A stretch of DNA of 64,000 bases from Patescibacteria group bacterium (GCA_041648575.1 JBAZOT010000003.1:14895-78894), one strand, 5' to 3'; positions 30,778 to 63,250 are shown, counted from the stretch's first letter. Notes: a model not told the origin generated them from the letters alone. A program made the numbers and translations.

Positions 30778-31488
30778 ATGACTAAAGCTCTGACTTTTAA
30801 TCGTACTACTTTTCCCCTTCTTTACCGTCGCTATTTAAGTATTGCTTTAACTATAGCAATCTTTGTACATCTTGCGGTAATTGCTGTTTATTATATTGTC
30901 TCGTCATTTACCGTTGAAGAGTCAATAGTAATGGTCAGACTAACAAAATATATCGACCTACCACCTCCACCATCAATAGATCAGGCTAATAATCCACCAA
31001 TAGTTAACTTTAATATACAAGCAACAATTGGAAAAGGGATACCCGTCCCTGTGCTTGACGCAGAAGTCAATCCCGATCAAACCATTGCTTCACAAACAGA
31101 ACTATCACAGCAAGCTAACGCCACCAGTAATATTTTAAATACTCAATCAAATGTAGAATTTATTCTTGACCAAAAAATTAATATTGAAGACGAGGAACCT
31201 CCTGATTTTGTGCCAGTAGAGAAACAACCTGTGCCTGTTAAGACTCAACAACCAGCATATCCTGAAATTGCCAGACGAGCTGGTGTGGAAGGAACTGTTT
31301 GGGTAAAAATTCTTATAGATAAAGAAGGTAAAGCTAAGAAAGCGGTAATTATTAAAAGCGATGCAGAGATATTTAATGAAGCGGCAATTCAGGCTGCACT
31401 GCAATGGGTGTTTACGCCCGCTATGATGAATAATGGTCCAGTTCAAGTATGGGCCGCTGTTCCTTTTCGTTTTAAATTAAATAAATAA
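30778..31488 (+). CDS. TonB C-terminal-domain protein (energy transducer TonB-like), N-terminal TM anchor
   Basis: Proline-rich linker. C-terminal ...PAYPEIARRAGVEGTVWVKILIDKEGKAKKAVIIKSDAEIFNEAAIQAALQWVFTPAMMNNGPV. Confidence 0.8.
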   Translation: MTKALTFNRTTFPLLYRRYLSIALTIAIFVHLAVIAVYYIVSSFTVEESIVMVRLTKYIDLPPPPSIDQANNPPIVNFNIQATIGKGIPVPVLDAEVNPDQTIASQTELSQQANATSNILNTQSNVEFILDQKINIEDEEPPDFVPVEKQPVPVKTQQPAYPEIARRAGVEGTVWVKILIDKEGKAKKAVIIKSDAEIFNEAAIQAALQWVFTPAMMNNGPVQVWAAVPFRFKLNK

Positions 31489-37701: not shown

Positions 37702-38970
37702 TTATTTTAACCAAGAAACAAATTTTTTAGCCTCTTTAAAAGGCCCAATCATAGCTAAAGTATAACATTTGGGATCAATAATTGCACGCGCCACCCGCTG
37801 TAAATCTAATGCAGTGATTTTTTGAATCCTATTGATTAATTCAGCTGGCAGCTCTAATTTATGCTCCAGTAGTATTTGTCTACCTATCAATTCAGCCACA
37901 CTAGCCGAATCTTCCAATGAGAGTAATAATTTTCCTTTAACAAAATCCTTGGCCTTGGTTATTTCTGTTAATGGAATTTTTTCTATTCGCAGTCGCTCTA
38001 ATTCTTGACGGATTAAAGTTACAGCCCTGGATAACCTGTCTTTATCCAACCCAGCTTGAATAGCCAAAACACCAATACCTTCATAGGCAGATAATGATGC
38101 TCTTATAAAATAACACAAACCTTCTTGCTCTCTTAATCGAGAAAATAAACGCGAACTCATGTTGCCGCCTAGAATCACTGCTAATAATTCAGCAATTAAA
38201 ATGTCGGGGTGACGTAATGATAAAGCCGGTAATCCTAATGATAGCTGTATTTGTTTGGTATCTTTGTATTTTACAACTACCTTTGGCTGCCTAATCTTAA
38301 TAATTTGTTTGCCAAATTTTGGTTTTATACCAACACCAGTATTTTTTCCAAAATATTTATTTATCAACTGAAGTGCCTGTGAATTACTTTTTCCCGATAC
38401 AACTAGTAGCATATTTGAGGGGTGATAATATTTTTTCAAATAATCATGAACCGCTGGCTTGGTTAAAGACCGTACTGATTCTCGCGAACCGCTTATTAAT
38501 CGTCCCAAGGTTTGGCCTTTAAACATTTCGCCCTCAAGTAAATCTTCTACATACAATATTGGATTGTCTTCATACATATTTATTTCCTGAACAATAACTT
38601 CTTTTTCTCGCGCCATTTCTTGTTTATCTATCAATGGCTGCCAAACCAATTCCGATAACACTTTAAGTATAGTTTCAAAATGTTCAGCCGCTGCTTTAAT
38701 ATATAAACCTGTAACCTCTTTACCGGTATAAGCATTAAAATCTGCCCCTAAACCATCAATTAAATGAGTAAGCTCTTTTGAGGTTGGCCAGGTTTTAGTA
38801 CCTTTAAAAACCATGTGCTCTAAAAAATGTGAGACACCTGCTTGATTATTTTTTTCTAGACGCGATCCGGTATGTACCAAAACCAAAACCGTCACCGCTT
38901 CGGTTGAACCAAGATCAGCGATGACTACTGGCAGCTTATTTGCCAAACTATAACGTTTTTTTATTTTCAT
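37702..38970 (-). CDS. M16-family (insulinase/pitrilysin) zinc peptidase
   Basis: Inverted zinc motif HFLEHMVFKGT. Confidence 0.85.
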   Translation of the reverse strand: MKIKKRYSLANKLPVVIADLGSTEAVTVLVLVHTGSRLEKNNQAGVSHFLEHMVFKGTKTWPTSKELTHLIDGLGADFNAYTGKEVTGLYIKAAAEHFETILKVLSELVWQPLIDKQEMAREKEVIVQEINMYEDNPILYVEDLLEGEMFKGQTLGRLISGSRESVRSLTKPAVHDYLKKYYHPSNMLLVVSGKSNSQALQLINKYFGKNTGVGIKPKFGKQIIKIRQPKVVVKYKDTKQIQLSLGLPALSLRHPDILIAELLAVILGGNMSSRLFSRLREQEGLCYFIRASLSAYEGIGVLAIQAGLDKDRLSRAVTLIRQELERLRIEKIPLTEITKAKDFVKGKLLLSLEDSASVAELIGRQILLEHKLELPAELINRIQKITALDLQRVARAIIDPKCYTLAMIGPFKEAKKFVSWLK

Positions 38971-40392
38971 TTAAATAAAAGAATATTTTTCATTAAAGTA
39001 GCCTAACAGGTCGCTAATTACCACCCGCTCCTGCTTCATGGTGTCGCGATCGCGTACCGTTACTTTATTGTCGGTTAAACTTTCAAAGTCAACCGTGACA
39101 CAATAAGGCGTACCAATTTCATCTTGCCGGCGATAACGACGCCCGATAGAGGATATTTCATCGTAATCAACCATAAAACTAGAGGATAAAACCTGCCAGA
39201 TTGATTGAGCAACTTTACTAAGTTCTGGTTTTTTGGAAAGTGGTAAAACTGCAGCCTTATAAGGCGCTAAGTCTTTATGAAGTTTAAGTACTACTTCGGT
39301 CTCTTTGGTAGATTCAGTAGTAGTAGTACGCCCGCCCTCAATTTCAGTATAAGCGTCAACTAAAAACGCTAAAGTTGCCCGATCAGCCCCACCCGAAGTT
39401 TCAATTACCCAAGGAGTATATTTCTCACCTGTTTCTGTATTATGATATTTTAATTCCTTGCCGGAAAATTTCTCATGTCGTGAAAGGTCCCAATCGCCCC
39501 GATTATGAACTCCTTCTAATTCCTTAAATTCCGCATCGCCAGCAAAAGGAAATCTATAATCAATATCTACAGCGCGTTTGGCATAATGAGCTAACTCATC
39601 CTTTTTGTGTTCTCGAATATTAAGGTGCTCTGATTTAATGCCATAAGCCTTATACCACTCTTGTCTTTGTTTTAACCAATACTCAAACCACTTATCAGCG
39701 TCTTTAGAATTTATAAACCACTGCATTTCCATTTGTTCAAACTCCCGCGTACGAAAGATAAAATTTCCTGGCGTGATTTCATTGCGAAAAGCCTTGCCAA
39801 TTTGAGCAATACCAAAAGGAATTTTCTGTCGCGTGGTATTAACCACGCTATCATAATCAACATAAATACCCTGAGCTGTTTCTGGCCGCAAATAAAGCTG
39901 CGCTGCATCTCCCTCCACTGGACCCATAAAAGTCTTGAACATTAAATTAAAATCGCGTTTACCAGTTAATTCTCCATTGCATTCAGGACATTTTAATTCA
40001 CTAACGTCGCGTGGTATTTCTTTATCCCATTTAGGATAAAGGCTACGGAAATCTTCTAATAAATGATCAGCGCGAAACCTTTTTTTACATGATTTACAAT
40101 CCACCAGTGGGTCGGTAAAACTTTGAATATGACCCGATGCCTCCCAAACCTTGGGGTGCATTAAAATTGCTGAATCTAACCCCACAATATCCTGATGTTG
40201 TTGCACCATCGTTTTCCACCAAGCTTTTTTAATATTGTTTTTCAGCTCCACCCCCAGCGGCCCGTAATCATAACAAGAATTAAGCCCGCCATAAATTTCT
40301 GATGAAGGAAAAATAAATCCCCGCCTTTTTGCGAGGCTGACAATTTTCTCCATTTTATCTTGAACTGAAGATGTTTTATTGACTTTAACCAT
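38971..40392 (-). CDS. glyQS: glycine--tRNA ligase (alpha2 type)
   Basis: ...IYGGLNSCYDYGPLGVELKNNIKKAWW... class II GlyRS. Anticodon-binding C-terminus. Confidence 0.95.
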   Translation of the reverse strand: MVKVNKTSSVQDKMEKIVSLAKRRGFIFPSSEIYGGLNSCYDYGPLGVELKNNIKKAWWKTMVQQHQDIVGLDSAILMHPKVWEASGHIQSFTDPLVDCKSCKKRFRADHLLEDFRSLYPKWDKEIPRDVSELKCPECNGELTGKRDFNLMFKTFMGPVEGDAAQLYLRPETAQGIYVDYDSVVNTTRQKIPFGIAQIGKAFRNEITPGNFIFRTREFEQMEMQWFINSKDADKWFEYWLKQRQEWYKAYGIKSEHLNIREHKKDELAHYAKRAVDIDYRFPFAGDAEFKELEGVHNRGDWDLSRHEKFSGKELKYHNTETGEKYTPWVIETSGGADRATLAFLVDAYTEIEGGRTTTTESTKETEVVLKLHKDLAPYKAAVLPLSKKPELSKVAQSIWQVLSSSFMVDYDEISSIGRRYRRQDEIGTPYCVTVDFESLTDNKVTVRDRDTMKQERVVISDLLGYFNEKYSFI

Positions 40393-40476
40393 AGTGTCTT
40401 TACTTTAATAAATTTTATGGTTTTTGGCAAATAAAAAACTCTTTAACAATATATGACAATTGCCCATTATCTATTA

Positions 40477-41445
40477 TTACTCAATTAACTTCTTAAACTT
40501 TTCCACCATTGGCACTTGTTCTGCTTCTACTCCATAAGATTGTGCTAAATAATATGCTGTCCAGTCTGCTAACAATAACGAGGAAAATACCTTTTGTAAG
40601 TGTGAATCACCTTGTAATTTAATTATTTTAACAGGAAACTTTCTATCTTTATATAACTTTTCTAATACTTCCATTCTGGTTTGAATACGTTCATTATCAT
40701 CATCATCTAGTAAAAAAATAAAAAAATACTTTTTGGATAAAGCACGTGTAGAGCCAACCGCATCAAAACCCGTCATCTCATTATGATTCATTTCCGGCAA
40801 AATATTATAAAAAGCAGGAATTTTTCCTGTCTCATTTAATTTTATTTTCCAGCTATAAGCAATTATTTGATTACGAAATGAACTGTAAATAACTGGCACA
40901 TATTCATGGAGTGTTTGTGCCAATTCTTTTCCTACTGGTTCCAACGCTTCGGGATTAAGCAAACGCAACAATGAATTGGATTGTTTAATTAACTGATCTT
41001 CACCCATTGCTTTCAATATCGCTCGGTAATTAAAACCTAATGCCATGCGCGGTTGAATGCCGGTGTTGGGAATGATAATTCTAGGAACTTTGTATTCCTC
41101 AGCTAATTCATGCAACTTGCCATTAATAGATATTGCCAAACGCTGGTATTTTAATTGTCCAGCGCAATTAAAACCGTCCAACGGCTCTTCCGTATTTCCA
41201 GAGTAAGATACAAATATAGTTAGGGTTTTTGACTGTTTATTTTTAGGAATAAAAGGCAACCCGTAATCAGGATGGGTGACGAGTGGTAATTCGGGATTTA
41301 AGGACTTTACTAAATTAGCAGCCAACAGTGACCCCCCAATACCACAGGCCACAAAATTGTTAAAATTTTTGGTATTACAAACAGGATCTATTCGCGGATT
41401 AAACAAAAACTGTTTGGGAAAATTTAAAATAGCTTCGCGCATCAT
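40477..41445 (-). CDS. SIS-domain bifunctional phosphoglucose/phosphomannose isomerase-like protein
   Basis: ACGIGGSLLAANL and VSYSGNTEE SIS motifs. Confidence 0.6.
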   Translation of the reverse strand: MMREAILNFPKQFLFNPRIDPVCNTKNFNNFVACGIGGSLLAANLVKSLNPELPLVTHPDYGLPFIPKNKQSKTLTIFVSYSGNTEEPLDGFNCAGQLKYQRLAISINGKLHELAEEYKVPRIIIPNTGIQPRMALGFNYRAILKAMGEDQLIKQSNSLLRLLNPEALEPVGKELAQTLHEYVPVIYSSFRNQIIAYSWKIKLNETGKIPAFYNILPEMNHNEMTGFDAVGSTRALSKKYFFIFLLDDDDNERIQTRMEVLEKLYKDRKFPVKIIKLQGDSHLQKVFSSLLLADWTAYYLAQSYGVEAEQVPMVEKFKKLIE

Positions 41446-41449
41446 AAAT

Positions 41450-42358
41450 TTATGAATTAAAAATATTATAAAAATAATGATATTGGTCTGCGATGCTATC
41501 TATTGCTTGCTGGTCAGTAAGTTTATTATTCAAATATTGCTTTAATGATTCTAAAAAAATAGTACGACCAATGGCAAAACCAATAACGCCAGTGATCCCC
41601 TTACCAGCCATTAGCCACCTTTCCATATTTTGCGGATTTTCTCCCCTACCTAAAATAATTAAATTAACATTATCCCGTCCACCAGCTTTAATTTGTTTAA
41701 TCGTTGTTTGATAATGATCTGATTTAGTCATGCCCTCAATTTTCCAAACATCTGGCTCTACTCCAGCAGTTTGTAATTCAGCTATCATTTTTACTACCAA
41801 AGAAGGGCGAATTTCTTGATCATATTTATTAATATCACCAGCTTGTGCTAATTGTTCCGCTGTTGCCGGCACTAAAGTTTCAATTAAAAATTTATAACCG
41901 CTCTTATGGCACCAATCACTAAACTCTTTTAATTTTTTTTGCTGCCGCAAATTTGATTCTTGATCACCCCGCGGATTGTAGCGAATTAAAGCTTTAATAA
42001 AAGTTGGCTGATATTTTTCTATATGTTGATCAAATTCCTTACCGTATTCTAGAGTAAATTCTGTTTGTCCACTTTTTTCTACTGACAAACAAACTAAATA
42101 ACCAGCGTGCTTAGCTTCGTGTAATATTTTATCGCAAAACTGTTCATCTACCAAAATCGCAGCTCGTTCTTTCGGCACTAAATTACTTTCTATCGCTTTA
42201 ACAAAACCCTGATAAATTAGATGTTTTAAATCACAAATCTTATGTGAATCTTCATTACCTAACTCACCACTAATATGCAGTAAATCACGAATAAACGAAG
42301 ACCGATGGTCAAAAGCCAAGATAAACAAGGGTTTAGTATAACCTAAATTTGCTACCAT
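41450..42358 (-). CDS. DUF2090 / class-I-aldolase-like TIM-barrel protein
   Basis: ILAFDHRSSF N-terminal motif typical of DUF2090 (IolC C-terminal-like aldolase domain). Confidence 0.45.
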   Translation of the reverse strand: MVANLGYTKPLFILAFDHRSSFIRDLLHISGELGNEDSHKICDLKHLIYQGFVKAIESNLVPKERAAILVDEQFCDKILHEAKHAGYLVCLSVEKSGQTEFTLEYGKEFDQHIEKYQPTFIKALIRYNPRGDQESNLRQQKKLKEFSDWCHKSGYKFLIETLVPATAEQLAQAGDINKYDQEIRPSLVVKMIAELQTAGVEPDVWKIEGMTKSDHYQTTIKQIKAGGRDNVNLIILGRGENPQNMERWLMAGKGITGVIGFAIGRTIFLESLKQYLNNKLTDQQAIDSIADQYHYFYNIFNS

Positions 42359-42411
42359 AGTTAAAGTTTACCAAGTTTTACTGATAAATTAAACCCGCCG
42401 TTACCTTGTAT

Positions 42412-43095
42412 CTATTGTTCTTTAAATTCATCCAAGCAAGTTTCCAAATCTGGGGTTTTGGTCCAACCACATTGGTTATCTTCCTGGCGCTCGCAAACCG
42501 CCCGAGTATAACACACGTATTCGGGTTTAAAGTCGCAAGTCGTAATAACTTCTTCATCAGCGCAAATCTGTTTACTACAACCAGTTATAATACACGGTTT
42601 GGTGAGTAGTTGATTATCTTCACCAAATAATACCGGGATATTAATTTGTGCGTCGTACTCTGGTAAACCAGAAGGATTGTCTTTTTGTAAAACCAAAACC
42701 CCAGCATCGCTAGATGGTTTGGTAAAAGTTAAACTGGCAACAAATGGCACAAAATTTTCTGTCATCCAATCACTTTGCGCTTGGGCAATACCTTGGGCTA
42801 ATATATTTCCTTGGTCATCTAAAAGTCTAATCGGAAACGATGCTTCAAAAAACCAGGTTCCGCGCGCCTCTCCAGTAACTTGTAACGGACTGGCTACTAA
42901 CTGCTGCTTCTGCGGTTTAACAACTTTAATTAAATTCTCAACTTCTTGATCAACATCAACTGGACTATTGTTAACTATAGGCGAATTATTATTTAAGTTA
43001 TCACTGGTCTCAAACTGCTGCCAAATTATAAATCCCATCCAACCCAAAGCTAAAATGATTACCAGACTGATTATTATTCTTATAATTTTAGTCAT
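42412..43095 (-). CDS. membrane-anchored Gmad2 immunoglobulin-like-domain protein with C-terminal Cys-rich module (8 Cys)
   Basis: N-terminal TM. ...PLQVTGEARGTWFFEASFPIRLLDDQGNILAQG... Gmad2-like. C-terminal CIITGCSKQICADEE...CDFKPEYVCYTRAVCERQEDNQCGW. Confidence 0.6.
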   Translation of the reverse strand: MTKIIRIIISLVIILALGWMGFIIWQQFETSDNLNNNSPIVNNSPVDVDQEVENLIKVVKPQKQQLVASPLQVTGEARGTWFFEASFPIRLLDDQGNILAQGIAQAQSDWMTENFVPFVASLTFTKPSSDAGVLVLQKDNPSGLPEYDAQINIPVLFGEDNQLLTKPCIITGCSKQICADEEVITTCDFKPEYVCYTRAVCERQEDNQCGWTKTPDLETCLDEFKEQ

Positions 43096-43103
43096 AGATT
43101 TTG

Positions 43104-43592
43104 TTATGGTTGTAAAATATCTTCAGTACGTCCGTCAATAGAAATTATAACTTGTTTAAGTTCTGGAAATTGTTGCAGAGTGCTAATAATTTGCTGACGA
43201 ATATTGGTCACTCGGCAAGAACCGCCGACTTGATACTCTAACTGTTGATTAAAATCAACGCGTACTACACACTGTTCAATGATAAAATTTTGAATAACTA
43301 CTCCTTGATTAATACTAGTAAAATAACCTTGTTCTTTCTCGTCATCGGTTGGACCAATTAGTAGACTTTCCAGGACTACTTGCTCTTTATTAATAATGGA
43401 TACCTGCCTTAAAACTGGAAAAACCTTAGTACAGTCTAGTGCTTGTGGATCAAGCTTGCTATTGCCAAAAAATAATTCCACTGTATTCATTTGCTCTAGT
43501 GGCGCTTTGGCTTCTTGAATAGTTAATATAAAAAATATTAATGCTATGATTAAAAACAGTACAATAATCAACAATACATAACGGCGGGTCAT
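43104..43592 (-). CDS. GerMN-domain protein (membrane-anchored)
   Basis: ...LESLLIGPTDDEKEQGYFTSI...VRVDFNQQ...IISTLQQFPELKQVIISIDG GerMN pattern. Confidence 0.65.
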   Translation of the reverse strand: MTRRYVLLIIVLFLIIALIFFILTIQEAKAPLEQMNTVELFFGNSKLDPQALDCTKVFPVLRQVSIINKEQVVLESLLIGPTDDEKEQGYFTSINQGVVIQNFIIEQCVVRVDFNQQLEYQVGGSCRVTNIRQQIISTLQQFPELKQVIISIDGRTEDILQP

Positions 43593-43598
43593 AAAATA

Positions 43599-44177
43599 TT
43601 AATTGATTTCTAATAATTCAATTTCAAAAATAAGTGTGGCTTTGGCGGGTATCGCTCCATTGCCCACGCCTTGATCACCATAAGCAAGGTTAGAGGGAAT
43701 AATCAATTTGCGCTGTTCGCCTGGCTTCATTCCCACTAATCCCTGATCCCAACCCTTAATAACTTGCCCCTCGCCAAGGGAAAACACAAATGGTTCACCA
43801 CGATCCCGACTGGAATCAAATTTTGTACCATTGGTAAGCCAACCGGTATAGTGGACTGCTAGCTCGTCGCCTGTTACTGCTTCGCGCCCCTGGCCTGGTT
43901 TAATTATTTCAATTAACAAATTATCTGACTGACTAGTAGCAGTATTAGTTGGTAAATTTGTTCCTGTATTTCCAGATGATTCTTCGGTTGTTTTTAAACT
44001 ATCCCTAAATTCAATGGCCTGCTCATTGTTATTATTAATAATTTCCATATCATTATTCTTAAAAAAAATAAAATAAATTCCAATCAAAACTGCTAAACCA
44101 ACTAAAGTGCCAATAATTATGCCAATTGTCTGACTGGTATAAGTACGCTCACTTCTATTAGATAAATCTAGATACAT
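43599..44177 (-). CDS. FKBP-type peptidyl-prolyl cis-trans isomerase, TM-anchored
   Basis: ...[59 protein letters not shown]...LIFEIELL. Confidence 0.9.
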
Positions 44178-44201
44178 AAGATGAAACTATTTTAATATTT
44201 A

Positions 44202-44816
44202 CTACTTTACATTCTGGTTATTAAATCGCCGATTAATGATTTCTATTTGTTGCTTTAATAAATTATCATCAGTTACCAGTTTTATTTTCTCTTGTTTAAG
44301 AGCAGGTGGTAATTTATCAAATTTCTCTACTATATTTTTGATGGTAACTAACTGTTCGTGATTATAACTCTGCTCATTAATTTTACTTTGCTTGTTAATA
44401 TAAGGCCAGATTTCCTCTAATGCTTCGTGTTCAGCAATAATTCTAGTTAAGGTTTTCTCCCGACTAGTGGCTAATTGGTAATGTTTTTGATCATACCATG
44501 ATACGCTAATGCCTTGCTTATATAACAACTCTCCCAGTTGAACTAAATAAGAGGCTACATTATGACTTTCTTTTAAATCATGCGAACGCTGTTGGTCTTG
44601 ATCATCTAGTAAAATGCTAAATTCCCATTCTAATTGATGTAACATACTAGTGCATAAACCCTCCATAACTGCATGATACTGCGATTTTTCAAATTTTTCA
44701 GTAATATTATTTTCAAAATCACCCAAACGATCAATGATTTTTTCATCAAAATTAGATAATTGTTCTGTAACTAATTCTGGATTTTTTTCACTGGTGGTTA
44801 ATGTCTCGCGAAACAT
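44202..44816 (-). CDS. hypothetical protein (204 aa, no recognisable domain)
   Basis: Intact ORF tightly packed between the clp-like and FKBP genes. Confidence 0.45.
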   Translation of the reverse strand: MFRETLTTSEKNPELVTEQLSNFDEKIIDRLGDFENNITEKFEKSQYHAVMEGLCTSMLHQLEWEFSILLDDQDQQRSHDLKESHNVASYLVQLGELLYKQGISVSWYDQKHYQLATSREKTLTRIIAEHEALEEIWPYINKQSKINEQSYNHEQLVTIKNIVEKFDKLPPALKQEKIKLVTDDNLLKQQIEIINRRFNNQNVK

Positions 44817-44819
44817 AAA

Positions 44820-47393
44820 TTATAATTTACTGGCTTTTTCTACCCTCACCACGCTCCCCGGCTCTAGCACTACCACATCTCTACGGGTCAATTTACCAGT
44901 TAATAAATAATTTGCCAAAGCATTATCAACTTTATCTTGAATTACCCGTTGCAAAGGTCGTGCTCCGTATAATGGATCAAATCCTTCGCGTGCTAATTCT
45001 TCAATTGCCGTTGCTGAAGCTTGCAAAGTTATTCCTTTGGTTAATAAATTTCGCGCCAATTTATCTAGCAATAATTTAGTTATAGCAATTACGTTTTGAA
45101 AATCTAACGGTTTAAAAACTACCACGCCATCAAATCTATTAATCAATTCCGGTCTAAAATACTGTTTTAATTCATTTTGTAATAAGTATTGATGAATTTG
45201 TATAATGGTCTTGCCTTGACGCATGCTGTCCTGAATAAATTGCGTGCCAGCATTAGAAGTGGCAATGATAATCGTGTTAGTGAAATCAACAGTTCGTCCA
45301 GTTGAATCAGTTAACCGACCGTCATCGAATAACTGTAAAAAGACATTTAAAATATCAGGATGAGACTTTTCAAATTCATCAAGTAAAATTAAAGCGTAGG
45401 GAGCTTGCCTTACTGCTTCGGTTAAGTAACCAGCTTCCCGACCCATCCCTGGCGGCGCGCCTATTAGTCGATAAATGCTCTCGGCAGTTTGATATTCTGA
45501 CATATCCAAACGAATCATCTTGTTTTCGCCGCCAAAATATTCAGCTGCCACGGTTTTTGCTAATTCTGTTTTACCAACACCTGTCGGGCCTAAAAATAAA
45601 AAAGTGGCAATTGGCCGTGATGCTGTCCGTAACTCAACGCGTGCCCGCCTTAAAGCTGCTGCCACCAACCGCACAGCTTCGTCTTGGCCAATAATGCGCT
45701 GATGTAAAATATCCTCCAAATTAAGCAACCTTTCGCCCTCGGCCTTGCTGATTTTGGTAACTGGCACATTTACTTTTCCCGACACCAGTTGAGCAATATC
45801 TTCAGCGGTAATAGTTGTATTCTCTTTATTTTTTTGCCTGACAAATACTGCAGCTTCTTCACAAATCTTAATGGCTTTCTCTGGTAAAAAACGATCAGGA
45901 ATAAAACGCCGTGATAAATCCACCGCTTGTGCTAAGGCCCCATAAGAAAAATAAACTTTATGCTGATATTCAAGCTGCCCCACTGTTGCCTCTAAAATTT
46001 GTATGGCCACATCGTTTGTTGGCTCTTCTATTTTTACTTTTTCCAAAGCATTACCCAAAGAAGTACGATCCAAATAACTGCGCTGGTCGCTGGGGGTAGT
46101 AGACGCTAAAGTAATAATCCCTGACTTACCAATAAAATTGGCGATCATTTCTGACACATCTAAATTTTCCTTGCCACCAGTACTTTGACCCACTAAATTA
46201 TGAATGTCATCAATATATAAAATAATATTGCTAGCTCGCGATATCTCATTCATGATTTGCAGTAACTTATGTTCAACTTCATTAGCATTGTTAGCGCCGC
46301 CAACTAATGCGGGTACTGATAACTGAATCAATTTTTTGTCTTTCATTGTCTCTGGTACTTCTTCGGCCACCATAGCTTGGGCAATACCCTCGACAATTGC
46401 TGTTTTACCGACGCCCGATTCACCAACTAAAACCACGCTGGAATGACCACCTTCAATAATGCGGAAAATTTCCTGAATTTCCTTATCGCGTCCAATACAA
46501 GGCTTCAGATATCCATGAGCTGCCAAATAGGTTAATTCATGACTAATTTGATCTAATAAAGGCGTAGCTACGGCTAAATAGGCTCGATCTAAAGCATGGC
46601 GCGGGCGCCAGGCTGCTTTTCGCGCACGACGCGATACTTCTTGCCGTAAACGGCGCCTAACAGCAAACCAAATAGTAATATTTTCTATCATCACTGGTTC
46701 AATAGCCAACTCATCTAAAACTTCCCGCGCTAAAGATTCATTTTTAGCTATGGCTAAAAGCATTTCTCCAACTTCAACTTGCTGACTTCGCTGGACTAAA
46801 GCCAATTCAGTCGCCTTAACAAAAATTCCTTGCACTGAATTGCTTAATTGTGGATTAGTACCAGTGGTTACTTTAGTCAACGCGTTTGATAAAGTATTAA
46901 ATAACTTATCTGGATCAACACCTAATCTGGAAAAAACCGCTTGTCCACTTCTGGTTTTTAAAGAGGCAGCCAATAAATGAATTTCCTTAATTTCATTATG
47001 CGAAAATTTATGGGCATATCGAAACGCCTCTTCCAGTAACTGCCAAACTTCGGGTGACAAATAATTCTCAACTTTAATAGCTTGATCTTTAGCGTCAATT
47101 AAAATTTTATGAGCAGTCCGTTCCTGTTCTAAGCGATAAAAAGTATAACCAAAAAAGAAAACTGCCAACCAAAATAATCGATGTAGCTCGGCTGGCGGCA
47201 TAATTGACTCCCACCAAAATCCTCCTTGTTCAATAAATAAAAATAATCGCCAGAAATAAAATACCAAAAAAATTATCGCTAACAACAATGAACAACCACC
47301 CACTAAGCGATACATTAACTGGCGAAATTTGCGCGCCAATAACGACGGTAAAGTTGGTTTTATTGTCCAGGCAATGACCGACATTTTAAACAA
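44820..47393 (-). CDS. ClpB/ClpC-family double-AAA+ ATPase with an extra hydrophobic N-terminal region (about 100 aa, 2-3 predicted TM) and no ClpP-docking loop
   Basis: Clp-N repeats (...IKEIHLLAASL..., ...VEVGEMLLAIAKN...). D1 Walker A GESGVGKTA, D2 GPTGVGKTE. No [ILV]G[FL] loop seen after the D2 sensor. N-terminus ...LLLAIIFLVFYFWRLFLFI... and LFWLAVFFFGYTFY hydrophobic. Confidence 0.85.
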   Translation of the reverse strand: MFKMSVIAWTIKPTLPSLLARKFRQLMYRLVGGCSLLLAIIFLVFYFWRLFLFIEQGGFWWESIMPPAELHRLFWLAVFFFGYTFYRLEQERTAHKILIDAKDQAIKVENYLSPEVWQLLEEAFRYAHKFSHNEIKEIHLLAASLKTRSGQAVFSRLGVDPDKLFNTLSNALTKVTTGTNPQLSNSVQGIFVKATELALVQRSQQVEVGEMLLAIAKNESLAREVLDELAIEPVMIENITIWFAVRRRLRQEVSRRARKAAWRPRHALDRAYLAVATPLLDQISHELTYLAAHGYLKPCIGRDKEIQEIFRIIEGGHSSVVLVGESGVGKTAIVEGIAQAMVAEEVPETMKDKKLIQLSVPALVGGANNANEVEHKLLQIMNEISRASNIILYIDDIHNLVGQSTGGKENLDVSEMIANFIGKSGIITLASTTPSDQRSYLDRTSLGNALEKVKIEEPTNDVAIQILEATVGQLEYQHKVYFSYGALAQAVDLSRRFIPDRFLPEKAIKICEEAAVFVRQKNKENTTITAEDIAQLVSGKVNVPVTKISKAEGERLLNLEDILHQRIIGQDEAVRLVAAALRRARVELRTASRPIATFLFLGPTGVGKTELAKTVAAEYFGGENKMIRLDMSEYQTAESIYRLIGAPPGMGREAGYLTEAVRQAPYALILLDEFEKSHPDILNVFLQLFDDGRLTDSTGRTVDFTNTIIIATSNAGTQFIQDSMRQGKTIIQIHQYLLQNELKQYFRPELINRFDGVVVFKPLDFQNVIAITKLLLDKLARNLLTKGITLQASATAIEELAREGFDPLYGARPLQRVIQDKVDNALANYLLTGKLTRRDVVVLEPGSVVRVEKASKL

Positions 47394-47736
47394 AAATTAA
47401 AATTAATGACACTGGTAACAATGCCAGCCAAATTAAAAAAATCGCCGTGTACCACAACACCCAAAAAACCAAACGAATAAATTTATAGATCACCAAAACC
47501 GTGCGCATCAATAAACTAATGGCGCGCCCCGAAATGGTGTAATCGCCATACATTGGCTTAAAAAAGTATTTTAAAAATAACCCCAGAGCCAACCGTTCCC
47601 AGGTATTATGAAGACTTTCTAAGCAATACTGGCCAACCATTTTTAACCCACCAGTATACCACCACCAAGGGAACCGCCACAGGTCGCCAATAACATTTAA
47701 AGCTAATTTACTAACTTCTTCCCGCGCATATGTCAT
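47386..47736 (-). CDS. small membrane protein (116 aa), overlaps the clp-like start by 8 nt
   Basis: C-terminal ...LVFWVLWYTAIFLIWLALLPVSLILIFV. Could be a separate gene or a frameshifted N-terminal extension of the clp-like gene. Confidence 0.4.
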   Translation of the reverse strand: MTYAREEVSKLALNVIGDLWRFPWWWYTGGLKMVGQYCLESLHNTWERLALGLFLKYFFKPMYGDYTISGRAISLLMRTVLVIYKFIRLVFWVLWYTAIFLIWLALLPVSLILIFV

Positions 47737-47789
47737 ACGCTTATATTATACTTTATTTTATGCAGGGAGAAAAGAAAATATCTTTGCTT

Positions 47790-48920
47790 CTATAACTTAC
47801 CTTTTTTAATAGCTAAACGAATAATCTTCATCAATTCCAAATAAAAATGCAGATTGTGAATAGTGGCCAGGCGCAAGGCCAGGGTTTCTTGGATATCAAA
47901 CAAATGTCTTAAATAAGCGCGGGTGGTTTTTAATTGGGCGCAGGTAAAACACAAACAACCTTGCTCCAAAATAGAAAAATCTTTTTTATAAACCGCGCTT
48001 TTAATATTTATTGCTTCATAAAACTTTTTACCGCTGGCTAGTAATTTTACTTTATCCTGCTGGCCTGATTTTAACCACAGATAAATTCGTCCATGCCGCG
48101 CCTCTCGAGTCGGAATTACACAATCAAAACAATCCACTCCTCGCTTTACCGCCTCCACAATATTTTCTGGATACCCCACGCCCATTAAATAATGTAATTT
48201 ATCCTGCGGCAATAACGGAACAGTATAATCTAAAACTTGGTACATTTGTTTTGGTTCTTCGCCAACAGCTAATCCACCAATAGCATAACCATCAAAGGGT
48301 AATTGTTTTAATTCTCCGCAACTTTGCTGACGCAAATCTTTAAAAACTGAACCTTGAGCAATTCCAAACAATGCCTGACCCGGTTTTTTAATTTTTGGCC
48401 AATACTTTATTGCTTGCTTAGCCCATGATGAAGTTCGCTCTACTGCCGCACCTGCTTCTTGCTTAGTACAAGGATAACCAACACATTCATCTAACACCAT
48501 TACTATATCTGATCCTAATTCAACTTGTATGGCTAAAGCTAATTTAGGAGTTAAAAAATATTTATTACCATTTTCCGGTACTCTAAATTCCACTCCATCT
48601 GGTTTTACTTTACGTACCTTACTTAAACTAAAAACTTGAAACCCGCCTGAATCAGTTAAAACTGGACCTGACCAACCCATAAATTTATGCAAACCACCGG
48701 CCTGGCGAATAACCTCACGTCCAGGCTTTAGCCATAAATGATAGGTGTTAGACAAAATAATTTGGGCACCCAGCGCCTTAATATCTGCCACAGACAAACT
48801 CTTTACTGCCCCACGGGTAGCAATTGGTAAAAAAAACGGCGTTTCGATTTTACCGTGCCGAGTTTTAAAAACCCCAACCCGGGCTTGACTTTTAGGTGAC
48901 TTTTGTTCTAAAGTAAACAC
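47790..48920 (-). CDS. tgt: queuine tRNA-ribosyltransferase
   Basis: ...RHGKIETPFFLPIATRGAVK...ILSNTYHLWLKPG... C-terminal Zn-binding CxCxxC...H. Confidence 0.95.
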   Translation of the reverse strand: MFTLEQKSPKSQARVGVFKTRHGKIETPFFLPIATRGAVKSLSVADIKALGAQIILSNTYHLWLKPGREVIRQAGGLHKFMGWSGPVLTDSGGFQVFSLSKVRKVKPDGVEFRVPENGNKYFLTPKLALAIQVELGSDIVMVLDECVGYPCTKQEAGAAVERTSSWAKQAIKYWPKIKKPGQALFGIAQGSVFKDLRQQSCGELKQLPFDGYAIGGLAVGEEPKQMYQVLDYTVPLLPQDKLHYLMGVGYPENIVEAVKRGVDCFDCVIPTREARHGRIYLWLKSGQQDKVKLLASGKKFYEAINIKSAVYKKDFSILEQGCLCFTCAQLKTTRAYLRHLFDIQETLALRLATIHNLHFYLELMKIIRLAIKKGKL

Positions 48921-48974
48921 AATTAAAAAATATCACAAATCAAATCAAATTAAAAATAAAAGGAGGGTAATGTC

Positions 48975-49721
48975 TTGTTCCTTAATAAAATGTTAATAAA
49001 GGCAGAGATTATAGCCTCTGTGATAATAAGGGTAAAAGATATAACAATAGATTATATTATTGATCCATTTGTTCCGATTCAAACAAATCGCCGTAAAATC
49101 AGAAACGCCTTAGTTTCTTTTGCAAAATATCTATCACGTCCGCTATCGGAAAAAGTTGACTTGTGGATTGAGCAAGATATAATCTCAACCGCTAATATTA
49201 TCTCCCTAAGCAGGGCACTAATGGCTGGCCCGCTATTCTTAATATTTACCCATTTTGACTTGGGTATTACCTACCAAATGGGACCCTTGATATGGGCTTT
49301 CGTTTCTGACTATATAGATGGAGTTTTAGCTAGAAAAATGTCTCAGGTGACTGATTTAGGCGCTGGATTAGATGCGGCTTGCGACAAAATATTTGCCTTT
49401 TTTGTTGCAATATCTTATTTAGATCAACTTTTTTACTCGCCGTTCAACGCCGTGGCGTTTATAATATTAGATGGATTCCTGCTAACTTTAGGTATTATGT
49501 TGTATTTAGCCAGAAAAAAAGGACATTATCAAGGTAAGGCCGAAGTTAGAGCTAATTGGTTAGGTAAAATTAAATTCAACCTTCAAGCTGGAGCATGTTT
49601 CTGTTGGATGAATTACTGGACAACAGAGGGCCACTACTTTTTACTTGGCGCCAATTTGTTTGCACTTGGTAGCCTGATACGGCACCTTTCTCCTAAAATA
49701 AAAAATAATGAGACCGGATAA
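48975..49721 (+). CDS. CDP-alcohol phosphatidyltransferase family protein
   Basis: DYIDGVLARKMSQVTDLGAGLDAACDK matches D-G-x2-A-R-x8-G-x3-D-x3-D. The true start may be an internal Met. Confidence 0.8.
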   Translation: MFLNKMLIKAEIIASVIIRVKDITIDYIIDPFVPIQTNRRKIRNALVSFAKYLSRPLSEKVDLWIEQDIISTANIISLSRALMAGPLFLIFTHFDLGITYQMGPLIWAFVSDYIDGVLARKMSQVTDLGAGLDAACDKIFAFFVAISYLDQLFYSPFNAVAFIILDGFLLTLGIMLYLARKKGHYQGKAEVRANWLGKIKFNLQAGACFCWMNYWTTEGHYFLLGANLFALGSLIRHLSPKIKNNETG

Positions 49722-49742
49722 GCAACTTCTGGTCTTTTTTTA
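49709..49742. terminator. Probable bidirectional terminator between convergent genes
   Basis: AGACC-ggataagcaacttc-GGTCT followed by TTTTTTT. A-rich on the other side. Confidence 0.5.
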
Positions 49743-51632
49743 TCTAACAACCACTCCTTTGCCTTGCGCGCCTAAATCATTATCCAGTTCTGTGGTAACT
49801 AATTTATCTGTAGCAATTAAATCTGCACCGCTATAAGCATCCCGAGCTGTGGCAGTGGTGGTTTTTACCAACACTAAAATTTTATCCGCATCTTGCTCTG
49901 CCGGTGTAATAGCTACTTCAAAAGACGCTTCTGGTTTATCAAATTTAAACCCTACGCCCGCAGGCAGACGATTTAATTCCCAACGCACTTCGCGAGTATT
50001 GGGATTATATGTTAATGGCTGGCCATGCGATACTGTCGTTTGTCCGGTCCAGGTTACATCTTGGGGTAAAGTAGTAGTAACTTCAACGTTGCTAGCCTCA
50101 TTAATAGTATTGGCTAATCTCCAAAAAATATTATAAGTGGTAGTGTTGCCTACTCGCGGCGGCAACTGTCCCGAGCCAATTTTTATCAACTGATCTGTGT
50201 AATACCTACCTTCTGTTTGAACTAATAATTGTGTATTAATCTTGGTAATTATAATATTTGATTCAGTAGTAACCGGCTGTAATTTACCACCAATCAATTG
50301 CTCGGCACTCGCCTTAACGCTGGTATTAAAACTATAAGGCGACATATTGTTAGGAGCAACACTTACAACTTTCAAGCGAAAATTAATACTGCCTTTGGTA
50401 CCAGGAGCAACTCTAGCTAAACTGGGCAACTCATTTTTTGTCCAAACCACTGCGTTTTCTGTCTCTTTAACATTAGTTGGCGTATCTGTTTGCCAAGAGG
50501 TCCAATCTAATAACTCGGAATTTAATTTGGTCTCTAACACTAAATTAGTTAAAGCAATTTCCCCTTCATTAGCATAACGCAATTCAAAATCAATTTGTTC
50601 CCCCCAATCAGCATAGCTTTTTAAAACTACCTGATTCGCAGTTAATGACAATGTTAAATGAGACTCAATTAACGTTACAGATATTTTCTTTTCTTCTTGA
50701 ATAGTAAAAGTATTATCGTCATTAATCACACCAATGGCTACAGAAAAATCCTGAATACCAGCACTAGCTGAAGTGGTAAACCTGCCGGTAAATTCCAGCT
50801 CGCCAACACTTTTGGCAGATAGGTCATCCAATTTCCATAAATTTATTTCGCCAATTACTGATTCTAATTTTGGAAGATCCAATTCGAAGCCGCTGGGGCT
50901 AATGAATTTTAATGCTAAATTCGGCAACGCCGCAGTAGAAGTATTATTATACTTAATTTTTAATGCCAAATCTTGATCAAAAGGTAATTGTGCAGGAGCT
51001 TCTAAATCTATGGTTACTACCGAAGCAATTAATTCTGTGGAAAAAACTGTCGTCTTGGCAAACTGTGCTTTAAAATTTTCCGGCTCATATGTAAAAACCG
51101 CGGCCATTTCCTTAATCTCGCCAACCTCACCAACCATTTGCCCGGTTATTACCAACTCTCCACTACCTTTGGCGTCAACTTGACCTAAGAGAAATCTAGT
51201 CTTGGCTTCATCATCAGCTGGTTTACTGGTTTCAGTTACGACAAAACCAGTCGGATAGCGAAAATTAACTTCCAAAAAATTTAAACCAACTCCCTGATCA
51301 TTATTCCAAGACAAAGTATAATTAATCATTTGCCCCGATGGCGCACTGACTGGACCAGATAATTTCACCTTAACCGCTTCTTCGCCAAATTTTGTATTCT
51401 GACCACTAAAAAAAACAAACCAAATGCCACCGACAATAATTACCACTAATAAAGTGGTCGTTAACCATAACCAACCACGCTGACGTGAAGCTTTTTTTCT
51501 TAGCACGCGAAAATCTTCAGGTGGATCTTGGCGATACATGCGCGCCAATTCACGCTCGGCAACTTCTGCAGTTAAAGGTGTTTTTTTTGATTTTGATAAA
51601 GTATCAAGAGGTGGCCTAGAAATATTAGACAT
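49740..51632 (-). CDS. large membrane-anchored extracytoplasmic protein (about 630 aa; cytoplasmic N-terminus, one TM, beta-rich ectodomain), unknown function
   Basis: ...RQRGWLWLTTTLLVVIIVGGIWFVFF TM. Long Thr/Ser/Val-rich ectodomain. The likely start is ATG at 51630-51632 (MSNISRPP...). Confidence 0.6.
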   Translation of the reverse strand: MSNISRPPLDTLSKSKKTPLTAEVAERELARMYRQDPPEDFRVLRKKASRQRGWLWLTTTLLVVIIVGGIWFVFFSGQNTKFGEEAVKVKLSGPVSAPSGQMINYTLSWNNDQGVGLNFLEVNFRYPTGFVVTETSKPADDEAKTRFLLGQVDAKGSGELVITGQMVGEVGEIKEMAAVFTYEPENFKAQFAKTTVFSTELIASVVTIDLEAPAQLPFDQDLALKIKYNNTSTAALPNLALKFISPSGFELDLPKLESVIGEINLWKLDDLSAKSVGELEFTGRFTTSASAGIQDFSVAIGVINDDNTFTIQEEKKISVTLIESHLTLSLTANQVVLKSYADWGEQIDFELRYANEGEIALTNLVLETKLNSELLDWTSWQTDTPTNVKETENAVVWTKNELPSLARVAPGTKGSINFRLKVVSVAPNNMSPYSFNTSVKASAEQLIGGKLQPVTTESNIIITKINTQLLVQTEGRYYTDQLIKIGSGQLPPRVGNTTTYNIFWRLANTINEASNVEVTTTLPQDVTWTGQTTVSHGQPLTYNPNTREVRWELNRLPAGVGFKFDKPEASFEVAITPAEQDADKILVLVKTTTATARDAYSGADLIATDKLVTTELDNDLGAQGKGVVVR

Positions 51633-51777
51633 ACCCAGTAACAAAAACTTGACCTGCTAAAAATTAAGCGAGTCGAGATAATTAATAATAAAAGTTGGTT
51701 GGTTTATAAAAGCTGACATAAATTGATAATATAGATGATTTTTACCAGAGCTTAAGTCAAGTTTTGTTACTAGGCAT
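51633..51777. repeat. Copy 2 of the ~140-bp TIR-bounded intergenic cassette
   Basis: ACCCAGTAACAAAAACTTGACCTGCTAAAAATTAAGCGAGTC ... GAGCTTAAGTCAAGTTTTGTTACTAGGCAT. See copy 1 at 6333-6484. Confidence 0.8.
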
Positions 51778-51779
51778 AT

Positions 51780-52529
51780 TTATAGAATACTACGTAAAAG
51801 TTTTAATGTATAGAGTTGTCGTCCTGCCTGTCCTTGGACATAATCAACCAAAAATCCTAAAAGTTCAGCTGGTAATTGACGATTATACGGTGGTTCCGCT
51901 CGTGTCGCTAGGGTGTGTAAATAACTTAAAGCGTCATCAGTTAATAAAAACAAACCACTGCTATCGATGATACAATTTTTATGATAAAAACCATGTTCTC
52001 TAAAACTAAACACCACGGGCGCTGCTAATTCACCTTGGCATTTTGGACACCTAGTAACTTGAATTGCTAGACCAGTAATTTTTAATATTTTATAAATAAA
52101 TCTGCCCAGATATGTTCTGGCTCGCTCACGCCAAGCCGGCTCATCTTTGGGAATATCTTTTAATTGGCTTAAATAATACCTTAGCGATTTTAATAATTCC
52201 GGTTCAGGCGCGCCTAAAGAAGTTAGCACATCAGTTATTTCCAAAAACGAAGTGCCTAAAATGGCGGTATTTAAATGATAAGGTGTTTTTAAAAAAATTC
52301 TTTTAAGTTCCGCGCCTGCTAATTTATCATATTTTTTCCCCGGTGCCACCTGTACCTGAACTTCACCAAAAATCACCAAATGTGGAGCTAATTTAGATAA
52401 AATTTTTCGCGAACTAGTAGCTACCGCCTCAACCTTACCCCGTCGCTCTGTAAAAATAGTATAAAGCCGATCATTTTGCCTATGACTTCTAGCGCGTAAA
52501 ACAATACCGGTAGTGGTATAAGTAGACAT
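51780..52529 (-). CDS. recO: DNA repair protein RecO
   Basis: N-terminal OB fold (...TGIVLRARSHRQNDRLYTIFTERRGKVEAVA...). C-terminal zinc motif CPKCQGE...HKNC. Confidence 0.75.
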   Translation of the reverse strand: MSTYTTTGIVLRARSHRQNDRLYTIFTERRGKVEAVATSSRKILSKLAPHLVIFGEVQVQVAPGKKYDKLAGAELKRIFLKTPYHLNTAILGTSFLEITDVLTSLGAPEPELLKSLRYYLSQLKDIPKDEPAWRERARTYLGRFIYKILKITGLAIQVTRCPKCQGELAAPVVFSFREHGFYHKNCIIDSSGLFLLTDDALSYLHTLATRAEPPYNRQLPAELLGFLVDYVQGQAGRQLYTLKLLRSIL

Positions 52530-62362: not shown

Positions 62363-63250
62363 ATGGAAAAAAATAACATAAATAACGCAGTAGTTGATGA
62401 GGCGTTGAATGATACAGCGCCGATAACAACTGTGGAACCGGAATCAACGTCGCCTACTCCGGATCCGACACTAGCAATAGATGATCGACCAGAGCCAGAT
62501 CTTGCTCCAACAGGAGACGATCAATCGTGGTTCCAAAAAAATATTCTTTTAATCGGCCTGATTGTCGGGGTCGTGTTGGTGGCACTCATACTATTTGCGT
62601 TTAAGTCATGTGGCGGAGACGATAAGGGCACAAAAAAAACGACAAAGATCGTTGACTCAACAGCCGTAGCTGATTCAACTGCGAGGGCTAAAGCCGACTC
62701 GCTCGTGAAGGCTAAAGAACTCGGCTATCAAAATCTTATTGATTCACTAAATAAGATGCAGCCAATGAATCTATTGGACGTTATTTCTCAACTCGACGTT
62801 CAAGGAAAAATCTGGAAAAGCCAGGTTAAGGCAGTACAAACAGTGACTGGTAATCTTCACCAGAAAGCGCTGGCACTCGACGGCCAATCTAGAGTTGGAG
62901 TATGGGGTCAAATTACCCAAATGTCATCAACACTACCCAGTGTTTCCACTATTCCCGAGATCCTCAACACTATCTCAGCAGATGTTGTTGAGATAAAAAA
63001 GGACATAAAGGAACATCGGAAAGGTGCTCGTGCCTCTCATAATCAAGCGGTTGCCCAGCGCAATGAAATCCAGAACCAACTAGACGATCTGGATACTCAA
63101 ATAACTATGGCTCGTGGTGCACTTACTACTGCCAAAGAAGAGCTCAAAAAAGCTCTTCAATCTGGTGAGCAATCAAAAATTGATAACCAGATGATAAATC
63201 TCCAGCTTCGTCTTGAAGCTCTGGAAAGATTACAGAAAATACATAAGTAA
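62363..63250 (+). CDS. membrane-anchored coiled-coil protein (295 aa); locally GC-rich coding sequence
   Basis: RBS GGAAGG. Pro/Asp/Thr-rich N-terminus, one TM (ILLIGLIVGVVLVALILFAF), then long predicted coiled coil. GC about 48% against about 36% background. Confidence 0.65.
   Translation: MEKNNINNAVVDEALNDTAPITTVEPESTSPTPDPTLAIDDRPEPDLAPTGDDQSWFQKNILLIGLIVGVVLVALILFAFKSCGGDDKGTKKTTKIVDSTAVADSTARAKADSLVKAKELGYQNLIDSLNKMQPMNLLDVISQLDVQGKIWKSQVKAVQTVTGNLHQKALALDGQSRVGVWGQITQMSSTLPSVSTIPEILNTISADVVEIKKDIKEHRKGARASHNQAVAQRNEIQNQLDDLDTQITMARGALTTAKEELKKALQSGEQSKIDNQMINLQLRLEALERLQKIHK

Follow-up and report, generated by a model that had tools for sequence, protein, structure and literature searches.

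Class-I Clp/Hsp100 ATPases carry tandem AAA+ modules (D1 and D2) together with AAA_lid_9, ClpB_D2-small and Clp_N domains, and the described members can be told apart by a handful of further features. In the ClpC proteins of Bacillus and Staphylococcus and in mycobacterial ClpC1, the order Clp_N, D1, D2, D2-small is accompanied by an M-domain, on which MecA or McsB docks, and by a VGF loop for ClpP. ClpB/Hsp104 has no ClpP loop, has a coiled-coil M-domain, and carries tyrosines in its KYRG and GYVG pore loops, and ClpA has an IGL loop and no M-domain. AAA+ rings can also sit at a membrane: FtsH and Msp1/ATAD1 are held at the cytoplasmic membrane face by N-terminal transmembrane helices, and the Torsins, AAA+ proteins related to Hsp100, lack aromatic pore loops, are membrane-associated and have a small membrane partner, LAP1 or LULL1 (PMC5425593). 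Here we describe a membrane-anchored Clp/Hsp100 ATPase and a small membrane protein, p116, encoded side by side on the minus strand of a 64-kb stretch of DNA (the window, meaning the whole stretch that was analysed) from the Patescibacteria group bacterium GCA_041648575.1 (JBAZOT010000003.1:14895-78894), within a locus at positions 42412-47736. The two genes form a conserved pair, and we lean, with slightly better than even confidence, towards reading their products as a two-component, membrane-bound AAA+ remodeller of the Parcubacteria group that works independently of ClpP and DnaK.

Set beside these systems, the Clp protein has the domain order of ClpC, its best match in sequence and fold, and differs from it in having no M-domain, no VGF loop, a predicted dead D1 and no pore tyrosine, while a transmembrane hairpin and an apparently obligate small membrane partner have been added. 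With ClpB/Hsp104 it shares the absence of a ClpP loop and a ClpB-like D2 sequence, but it scores below the ClpB cutoff, lacks both pore-loop tyrosines and is membrane-anchored; it also lacks the coiled-coil M-domain, so no coupling to Hsp70 is expected. The missing M-domain is common to ClpA, from which the protein departs through the missing IGL loop, a score below the cutoff, the degenerate D1 and the hairpin. The likeness to FtsH and Msp1/ATAD1 is an analogy of position only: FtsH belongs to another AAA+ clade, with a single AAA module, an M41 protease domain and aromatic pore loops, and a Pfam search of the Clp protein found no Peptidase_M41 match. Torsins are eukaryotic proteins of the endoplasmic reticulum lumen, with a single AAA module and no arginine finger of their own, this being supplied by the partner. 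The Clp protein resembles them in having a small membrane partner and no aromatic pore loops (about one fifth of its relatives keep the D2 tyrosine), whereas its own D2 arginine finger is conserved and p116 is not AAA-like.

The p116-clp pair

Listed in the direction of transcription, with distances in nucleotides (nt), the pair and the parts of its ATPase are the following.

47745-47750, minus strand: -10 box TATAAT within GTATAAT, the likely p116-clp promoter, conserved, 8 nt ahead of the p116 start codon
47386-47736, minus strand: p116, small membrane protein of 116 amino acids from an undescribed family, Clp partner; no relative in Pfam, NCBIfam or the PDB; two long helices, with a hydrophobic anchor at the C-terminus
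47382-47388, minus strand: junction of the p116 stop and the clp start, TAA-A-ATG, 1 nt between stop and start
44820-47384, minus strand: membrane-anchored class-I Clp/Hsp100 ATPase, 854 amino acids from ATG 47384 (Pfam, NCBIfam, homologues, AlphaFold2 (AF2))
47232-47300, minus strand: first transmembrane helix of Clp (TM1), residues about 29-51, hydropathy 2.3-2.7, kept across the family; AF2 helix 12-52 with a predicted local distance difference test score (pLDDT) above 90
47127-47183, minus strand: second transmembrane helix (TM2), residues about 68-86, ending at the near-invariant Y83-R84 (hydropathy, alignment, AF2)
46710-47072, minus strand: Clp_N domain, residues about 105-225, eight helices in two repeats (Pfam Clp_N, AF2 secondary structure)
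46611-46697, minus strand: family-specific long basic helix, residues 230-258, between Clp_N and D1 (alignments, AF2)
45765-46562, minus strand: D1 AAA+ module, degenerate (alignment to ClpC, column statistics of the family)
44835-45707, minus strand: D2 AAA+ module and D2-small domain, catalytic motifs intact, no ClpP-docking loop

The p116-clp pair is the conserved unit of this locus, and p116 is the only co-conserved neighbour of Clp. Scanning genomes with p116 as the seed confirmed 124 loci, and 80 of them were kept; with other neighbourhoods added, the set came to 84 loci from about 80 species. In 83 of these 84, clp lies immediately downstream of p116 on the same strand, and the exception is a contig end. 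Approached from the other side, all six Clp-seeded loci have a homologous small open reading frame (ORF) upstream, abutting or overlapping the clp start, and these include Clp proteins 40-47% identical to the one in the window. An earlier reading of the locus from its sequence (hereafter the original prediction) had given p116 the least weight of its genes. All relatives with the pair are Parcubacteria-group Patescibacteria (Veblen-, Kerfeld-, Magasanik-, Uhr-, Falkow-, Kuenen- and Komeilibacteria, and others), and the nearest homologues come from metagenome-assembled genomes (MAGs) of the "Patescibacteria group", Veblenbacteria and Kerfeldbacteria. The pair and Patescibacteria synteny were also seen in many third-party MAG records titled 'uncultured Gammaproteobacteria bacterium' (loci L005, L009-L011, L016, L018 and others), and one 'Udaeobacter' and one 'Planctomycetota' record likewise carry this Patescibacteria-only pair; such records appear to be mislabelled, or their contigs mis-binned.

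Members of the p116 family are about 110-135 amino acids long and have the signature PM[YF]G.[YD]..GR.[IL]S, a hydrophobic C-terminus and a gene directly upstream of a transmembrane-anchored Clp, all of which are found in the window's protein. Its invariant motifs are FPxWWY..G and PMYGDY..GR..S, and it ends in 28 uncharged residues that include a conserved proline. The AF2 model (pLDDT 93) has two helices of about 48 residues linked by the PMYGDY loop. R71, R78 and K85 share one face of a helix because they are spaced by seven residues; the stripe they make is invariant in the closer relatives, and only R78 exceeds 90% in an alignment of 149 sequences. HMMER collected 440 p116 representatives at E <= 1e-3, counted as clusters at 50% identity. 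Foldseek against the PDB returned no structural match with E < 1, and no related family was found in Pfam, in NCBIfam or by a profile search of the PDB.

The p116 stop codon occupies 47388-47386 (TAA), and the clp ATG at 47384 follows one base further on. Since the homologues begin M-x-x-I-A-W-T-I-K-P-T, which matches the product of this ATG, Clp almost certainly begins at ATG 47384 rather than TTG 47393, and the protein has 854 amino acids. The original prediction had an 857-residue protein overlapping p116 by 8 nt; this arose from the ORF listing, whose TTG 47393 start the homologue N-termini contradict, and it is replaced here by a gap of 1 nt. Across relatives the distance from stop to start is mostly -8 to +15 nt, and the 1-nt gap in the window suggests translational coupling. 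In two relatives the clp ORF after p116 is shortened even though the sequence continues (473 amino acids at L019:8357-9780, 280 at L079:9211-10050), and these are possibly pseudogenes or assembly errors.

The membrane anchor of Clp

The original prediction pointed to about 100 additional hydrophobic residues at the N-terminus of Clp, with two or three transmembrane segments, and asked whether they might come from a mis-called start. The extension is real by several lines of evidence, and two hydrophobic helices are seen in it; the third is not. The architecture, first 100 residues included, is kept in all of the best 120 database hits at about 100% coverage and down to 40% identity, and over codons 2-100 the ratio of nonsynonymous to synonymous substitution (dN/dS) is 0.22-0.26 against the closest relatives. 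The AF2 model, built from an alignment of 117 sequences, has a mean pLDDT of 88.9, and of about 90 for residues 12-91, which form a helix (12-52), a short helix (57-61) and another helix (68-91). Beyond this hairpin come the eight-helix Clp_N domain (105-225), the basic helix (230-258), a disordered linker, D1 and D2. By hydropathy TM1 is strong, and TM2 is weaker and rich in aromatic residues. The N-side flank carries a charge of +5 and the loop between the helices -3, which fits a topology with the N-terminus inside, the loop outside and the ATPase in the cytoplasm. The conserved hairpin, the model and this charge pattern together bear out the proposal that Clp is tethered to the membrane. 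In the basic helix, W239 is invariant, and N235 is invariant in an alignment of 25 sequences and at least 90% conserved in that of 117. A profile search with the N-terminal 272 residues gave three matches, its seeding being swamped by hydrophobic words.

Ahead of TM1, about two thirds of the family (124 of 184 members) have a zinc ribbon of the DnaJ type, CxxCxGxG...CxxCxGxG. It recalls the zinc-binding N-domains of ClpE and ClpX and the cysteine-rich domain of DnaJ, none of which is followed by a transmembrane hairpin. The clade of the window's protein, with about 850 amino acids, has lost it. Zinc-ribbon members of about 900-940 amino acids (for example P0024-P0040; L003:8001-8200) also have a 'YWG' motif before TM1.

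The AAA+ modules

Pfam places the protein in class I of the Clp/Hsp100 family, with every domain above its cutoff: AAA at 76.8 bits, AAA_lid_9 at 55.1, AAA_2 at 194.5, ClpB_D2-small at 71.2 and Clp_N at 26.1 (cutoff 20.7). Its AAA core superposes on those of ClpC and ClpB with a Foldseek TM-score of 0.88 and 42% identity, and the closest sequence match is B. subtilis ClpC (E = 4e-142). The assignment goes no further than the class. The top NCBIfam match, TIGR03346 (ClpB), scores 600.8 against an equivalog cutoff of 1232.1; PRK10865 (ClpB) reaches 489 against 1417 and TIGR02639 (ClpA) 529.7 against 993.15, and ClpK, ClpG and ClpV are likewise far out of reach. Judged from its sequence by their defining features, the protein is not ClpB, ClpC, ClpA, ClpE, ClpV, ClpK or ClpG.

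Residue-by-residue alignment to B. subtilis ClpC agrees with the original prediction that both the M-domain and the ClpP-docking loop are missing. Residues 407-462 of ClpC, the M-domain, have no counterpart in it, and the AF2 model has no coiled-coil insertion. Of the NCBIfam family models, those of ClpB and ClpC align to the protein in two stretches that skip the M region, and that of ClpA aligns to it without interruption over residues 114-839. At the docking loop, ClpC KYVGFNV is matched with MRQGKTI, with no (V/I)G(F/L) there, and the only such strings in the family are two chance IGL occurrences at another position.

The two AAA+ modules have had very different fates. Column statistics over 118 family members show that the Walker B motif of D1 has become IDD here and is DE in none of them, that the Walker A serine or threonine is retained in 51, and that an aromatic residue stays in the D1 pore loop of one. 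In the window's protein the D1 arginine fingers ERRF are replaced by NALE, and the pore loop KYRGEFE by NNANEVE. In D2, by contrast, the Walker A (GPTGVGKT), Walker B (LLDE) and sensor-1 motifs are invariant or nearly so, the sensor-2 GARP is invariant save in one gapped sequence, and the arginine finger R697 (GRTVDF) is arginine in 102 of the 118. Going by these motifs, D1 is unable to hydrolyse ATP throughout the family, and because its motifs are lost and those of D2 kept, D1 would be a pseudo-ATPase scaffold and D2 the sole motor. The pore loop of D2 was compared over 157 relatives: the canonical GYVG reads GMG in the window's protein, with methionine at the position of the tyrosine, and GY[SA]G is found in about 34, the loop being otherwise short, rich in Gly, Gln and Ser, and variable in length. 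To our knowledge, no well-known Hsp100 relatives other than the Torsins lack aromatic pore loops.

A likely promoter

A -10 box usually stands directly ahead of p116. The sequence (G)TATAAT, 6-8 nt before the ATG, is invariant in eight of eight close relatives, in a tgt-p116 spacer that has otherwise diverged. Of 75 loci, 20 have an exact TATAAT whose end lies 6-12 nt from the p116 start (6-9 nt in 19 of them), compared with 0.56% of background windows, and GTATAAT occurs three times in all on the minus strand of the window, this box included. It is thus likely to be the -10 element of the promoter of a p116-clp transcript. With a conserved box so near the start codon, p116-clp looks like an autonomous transcription unit whose mRNA has a very short leader or none. 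A generic sigma-70 scan of 40-49.8 kb gave 31 promoter-like sites where 32 are expected by chance, and a terminator scan of the same interval gave weak candidates only, all inside genes.

The downstream genes

The locus was originally described as six contiguous minus-strand genes at 42412-47736, and apart from small corrections the genes and their domains are borne out by the ORF listing, Pfam and NCBIfam. The spacing between the listed ORFs is tight, at 3-24 nt. The four that follow clp are these.

44202-44816, minus strand: p204, cytosolic protein of 204 amino acids, no Pfam or NCBIfam match; a neighbour in the closest relatives only
43599-44177, minus strand: transmembrane-anchored extracytoplasmic FKBP-type peptidyl-prolyl isomerase, 192 amino acids, FKBP_C at residues 98-189, transmembrane helix 20-38; lineage-specific neighbour
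43104-43592, minus strand: signal-anchored GerMN protein, 162 amino acids, Pfam Germane, N-terminal hydrophobic anchor; lineage-specific neighbour
42412-43095, minus strand: signal-anchored Gmad2 protein, 227 amino acids, with an eight-cysteine C-terminal module (Pfam, hydropathy); lineage-specific neighbour

Hydropathy supports the anchors of the FKBP, GerMN and Gmad2 proteins, and the C-terminus of the last weakly resembles heavy_Cys, at 24 bits where the cutoff is 50. Gmad2 takes its name from being a GerMN-associated domain, so the adjacency of these two genes is a known association.

The tally of neighbourhoods takes in 61 non-redundant relatives whose sequence continues for 3 kb or more downstream of clp, and the genes found there were, by number of loci:

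glyRS: 30
M16 peptidase: 18
FKBP: 3
Gmad2: 3
p204-like: 2
GerMN: 1

The FKBP, GerMN, Gmad2 and p204-like cases all have a Clp at least 55% identical to that of the window, and for FKBP, GerMN and Gmad2 the figure is at least 65%. In distant relatives the backbone reads recO - DUF11-like - CDP-OH transferase - tgt - p116 - clp - [variable] - glyRS - M16, with glyRS at times just 56-135 nt from clp, and in other lineages the slot after clp holds a sigma-70/DUF5667 pair, a pilin or a glycosyltransferase. Here it is filled by the block p204-FKBP-GerMN-Gmad2-DUF2090-PGI, and comparison of the loci marks p204, FKBP, GerMN and Gmad2 as a clade-specific insertion, by all indications without a functional tie to the ATPase. 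As no convincing terminator lies between, read-through from the p116 promoter is plausible, and the envelope genes may be co-transcribed with p116-clp in this organism.

In the window the backbone spans 37702-52529 (compared across loci L001-L087); its DUF11-like member is a DUF11/CLIPPER-like protein of 634 amino acids, and the CDP-alcohol phosphatidyltransferase lies on the opposite strand. The DUF2090 protein (41450-42358) and a bacterial-type phosphoglucose isomerase (PGI; SIS/bact-PGI_C, 40477-41445) accompany the FKBP/Gmad2 block in close relatives. The host genome is low in GC, at about 37%, and the content of the window is housekeeping: PheT, GyrB, an AddA-like helicase-nuclease, the alpha and beta subunits of the F-ATPase, MetRS, IleRS and ArgRS. 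Its minus strand holds almost all ORFs of at least 110 amino acids, and genuine-looking plus-strand genes are found only at 30778-31488, 48975-49721 and 62363-63250. Because this strand bias extends over nearly all of the window, the contiguity and shared direction of the six genes are weak evidence for a shared function.

Mechanism and alternative explanations

In the remodeller that we favour, Clp would form a hexamer at the cytoplasmic face of the membrane with its N-domain and D1 side turned towards the bilayer, by analogy with FtsH and Msp1, a geometry that suits the extraction of membrane proteins because the substrate-entry face adjoins the bilayer. The D2 ring alone would drive the complex, which, from the missing docking loop and the missing M-domain, should work without ClpP and without coupling to DnaK. 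p116 would be an obligate membrane cofactor, either an adaptor or regulator or a part of the membrane base, in putative contact with Clp. The complex would then remodel membrane-associated client proteins, or pull on them, from the cytoplasmic side, and in most relatives the clients might be captured by the N-domain together with the zinc ribbon, whose presence in most members fits client binding. Several observations weigh against this picture. TM2 is only moderately hydrophobic, and no more than about 34 of 157 relatives still have the D2 pore tyrosine, where this protein has methionine. Searches for stress regulation in the DNA gave no CIRCE element and two CtsR boxes where 3.3 are expected, none of them near clp, and so no link to heat shock or to stress proteostasis. 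With the D2 tyrosine mostly lost, polypeptides may be pulled only weakly, or the protein may act in some other way. That the pore loop is eroded in most lineages speaks for something other than canonical threading, yet threading may still occur, given the tyrosine kept in some lineages and the aliphatic residue of this protein. The original prediction of a membrane-tethered, ClpP-independent unfoldase thus holds for the tether and for the lack of a ClpP loop, and is doubtful for the word unfoldase, given a D1 that seems dead and the absence of both pore tyrosines.

Two other accounts of the ATPase pull in opposite directions from this one. It might simply be a ClpB/ClpC orthologue with the usual housekeeping role, which threads polypeptides in the canonical way as an unfoldase or disaggregase, happens to be tethered to the membrane and grips through Met, Leu or Val, with p116 as a minor accessory. 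We think this unlikely, even though ClpC and ClpB are its best matches in sequence and fold, its D2 motor is fully intact, about one fifth of the relatives retain GY[SA]G while this clade has an aliphatic residue in the loop, and the gene sits in the housekeeping backbone tgt-p116-clp-glyRS; what tells against it are scores far below the equivalog cutoffs of ClpB, ClpA, ClpK, ClpG and ClpV, the lack of an M-domain for DnaK or MecA coupling, a D1 degenerate in 118 of 118 members, nearly all without its pore aromatic, and a D2 pore loop free in length and composition, unlike that of any characterised threading Hsp100, while the strict linkage argues that p116 is not minor. At the other extreme the protein might not translocate polypeptides at all, D2 nucleotide cycling instead switching or assembling a membrane complex with p116. 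The aromatic pore loops are indeed gone in this protein and most relatives, and for such a loss combined with membrane attachment and a dedicated small membrane partner the Torsins provide an Hsp100-related precedent (PMC5425593). A conserved D2 arginine finger and sensor-2 are unlike Torsin, however, and mean that no partner need complete the active site; p116 is a helical hairpin and not a degenerate AAA fold, and the pore-loop tyrosine is still present in some relatives, so that we hold this account to be quite improbable.

The remaining explanations concern the gene models and the neighbourhood. One is an artefact, in which the extension would be a mis-called start, or p116 and clp a single gene split by an assembly frameshift, as the original prediction had asked, and the junction does lie in a stretch rich in A/T homopolymers. 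We give this next to no credence: purifying selection acts on the extension, which is conserved, p116 and clp are separate ORFs with a conserved stop in 83 loci, and among the best 150 of the 440 p116 representatives all but one are stand-alone proteins of about 105-190 amino acids. The one apparent p116-Clp fusion, P0208 (414 amino acids; L088:4001-7700), was rejected as an artefact, since indels have broken up clp, tgt and a glycosyltransferase alike on its contig. Very unlikely, too, is the proposal from which the work started, that all six genes form an operon whose membrane Clp acts together with FKBP, GerMN and Gmad2 to handle envelope proteins or to control the quality of secretion. The close spacing and the lack of a convincing terminator make co-transcription plausible, and the nearest relatives (L002, L005, L007, L008, L010) have the block as well. 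The original prediction named a lack of co-conservation in relatives as a finding that would count against it, and the six genes are not co-conserved: the tally above has FKBP, Gmad2 and GerMN in three, three and one of 61 loci, none beyond a Clp of 65% identity, and glyRS, sigma-70/DUF5667, a glycosyltransferase or other genes come after clp elsewhere. Almost the entire window is on one strand, and the ATPase domains are cytoplasmic while those of FKBP, GerMN and Gmad2 are extracytoplasmic.

The p116-Clp remodeller would, on the sequence comparisons made here, represent a distinct Hsp100 subfamily with a new partner family, conserved across Parcubacteria-group lineages and apparently undescribed; the full-text literature searched, whose coverage was not exhaustive, held no description of a transmembrane-anchored Hsp100 in bacteria of the candidate phyla radiation (CPR) or of the p116 family. 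Public annotation calls the homologues "ATP-dependent Clp protease ATP-binding subunit ClpC", and metabolic or proteostasis reconstructions of Patescibacteria that use this name mislead, because ClpP docking and the M-domain are absent and D1 appears dead. For an Hsp100 it is unusual to combine a strictly kept D2 motor with a pore loop that evolves freely and with a small membrane protein as obligate partner, and the family is a natural experiment on AAA+ rings without the canonical aromatic paddle. p116 itself is a compact new protein family, 440 clusters strong and without a Pfam model, and the pair amounts to a lineage-wide membrane ATPase module in CPR organisms, whose envelope and host-interaction biology is little known. 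Perhaps, and we offer this tentatively, with more doubt than belief, the pair is an undescribed membrane-embedded AAA+ machine characteristic of the Parcubacteria group, in which D1 is pure scaffold and D2, its aromatic grip largely gone, is non-threading or partner-assisted, a bacterial counterpart of Torsin and its membrane cofactor; if so, its target would be a membrane or surface assembly specific to these ultra-small, host-dependent bacteria. The arginine-rich helix of Clp (residues 230-258, 46611-46697) and the second helix of p116 (47386-47530) are candidate contact surfaces.

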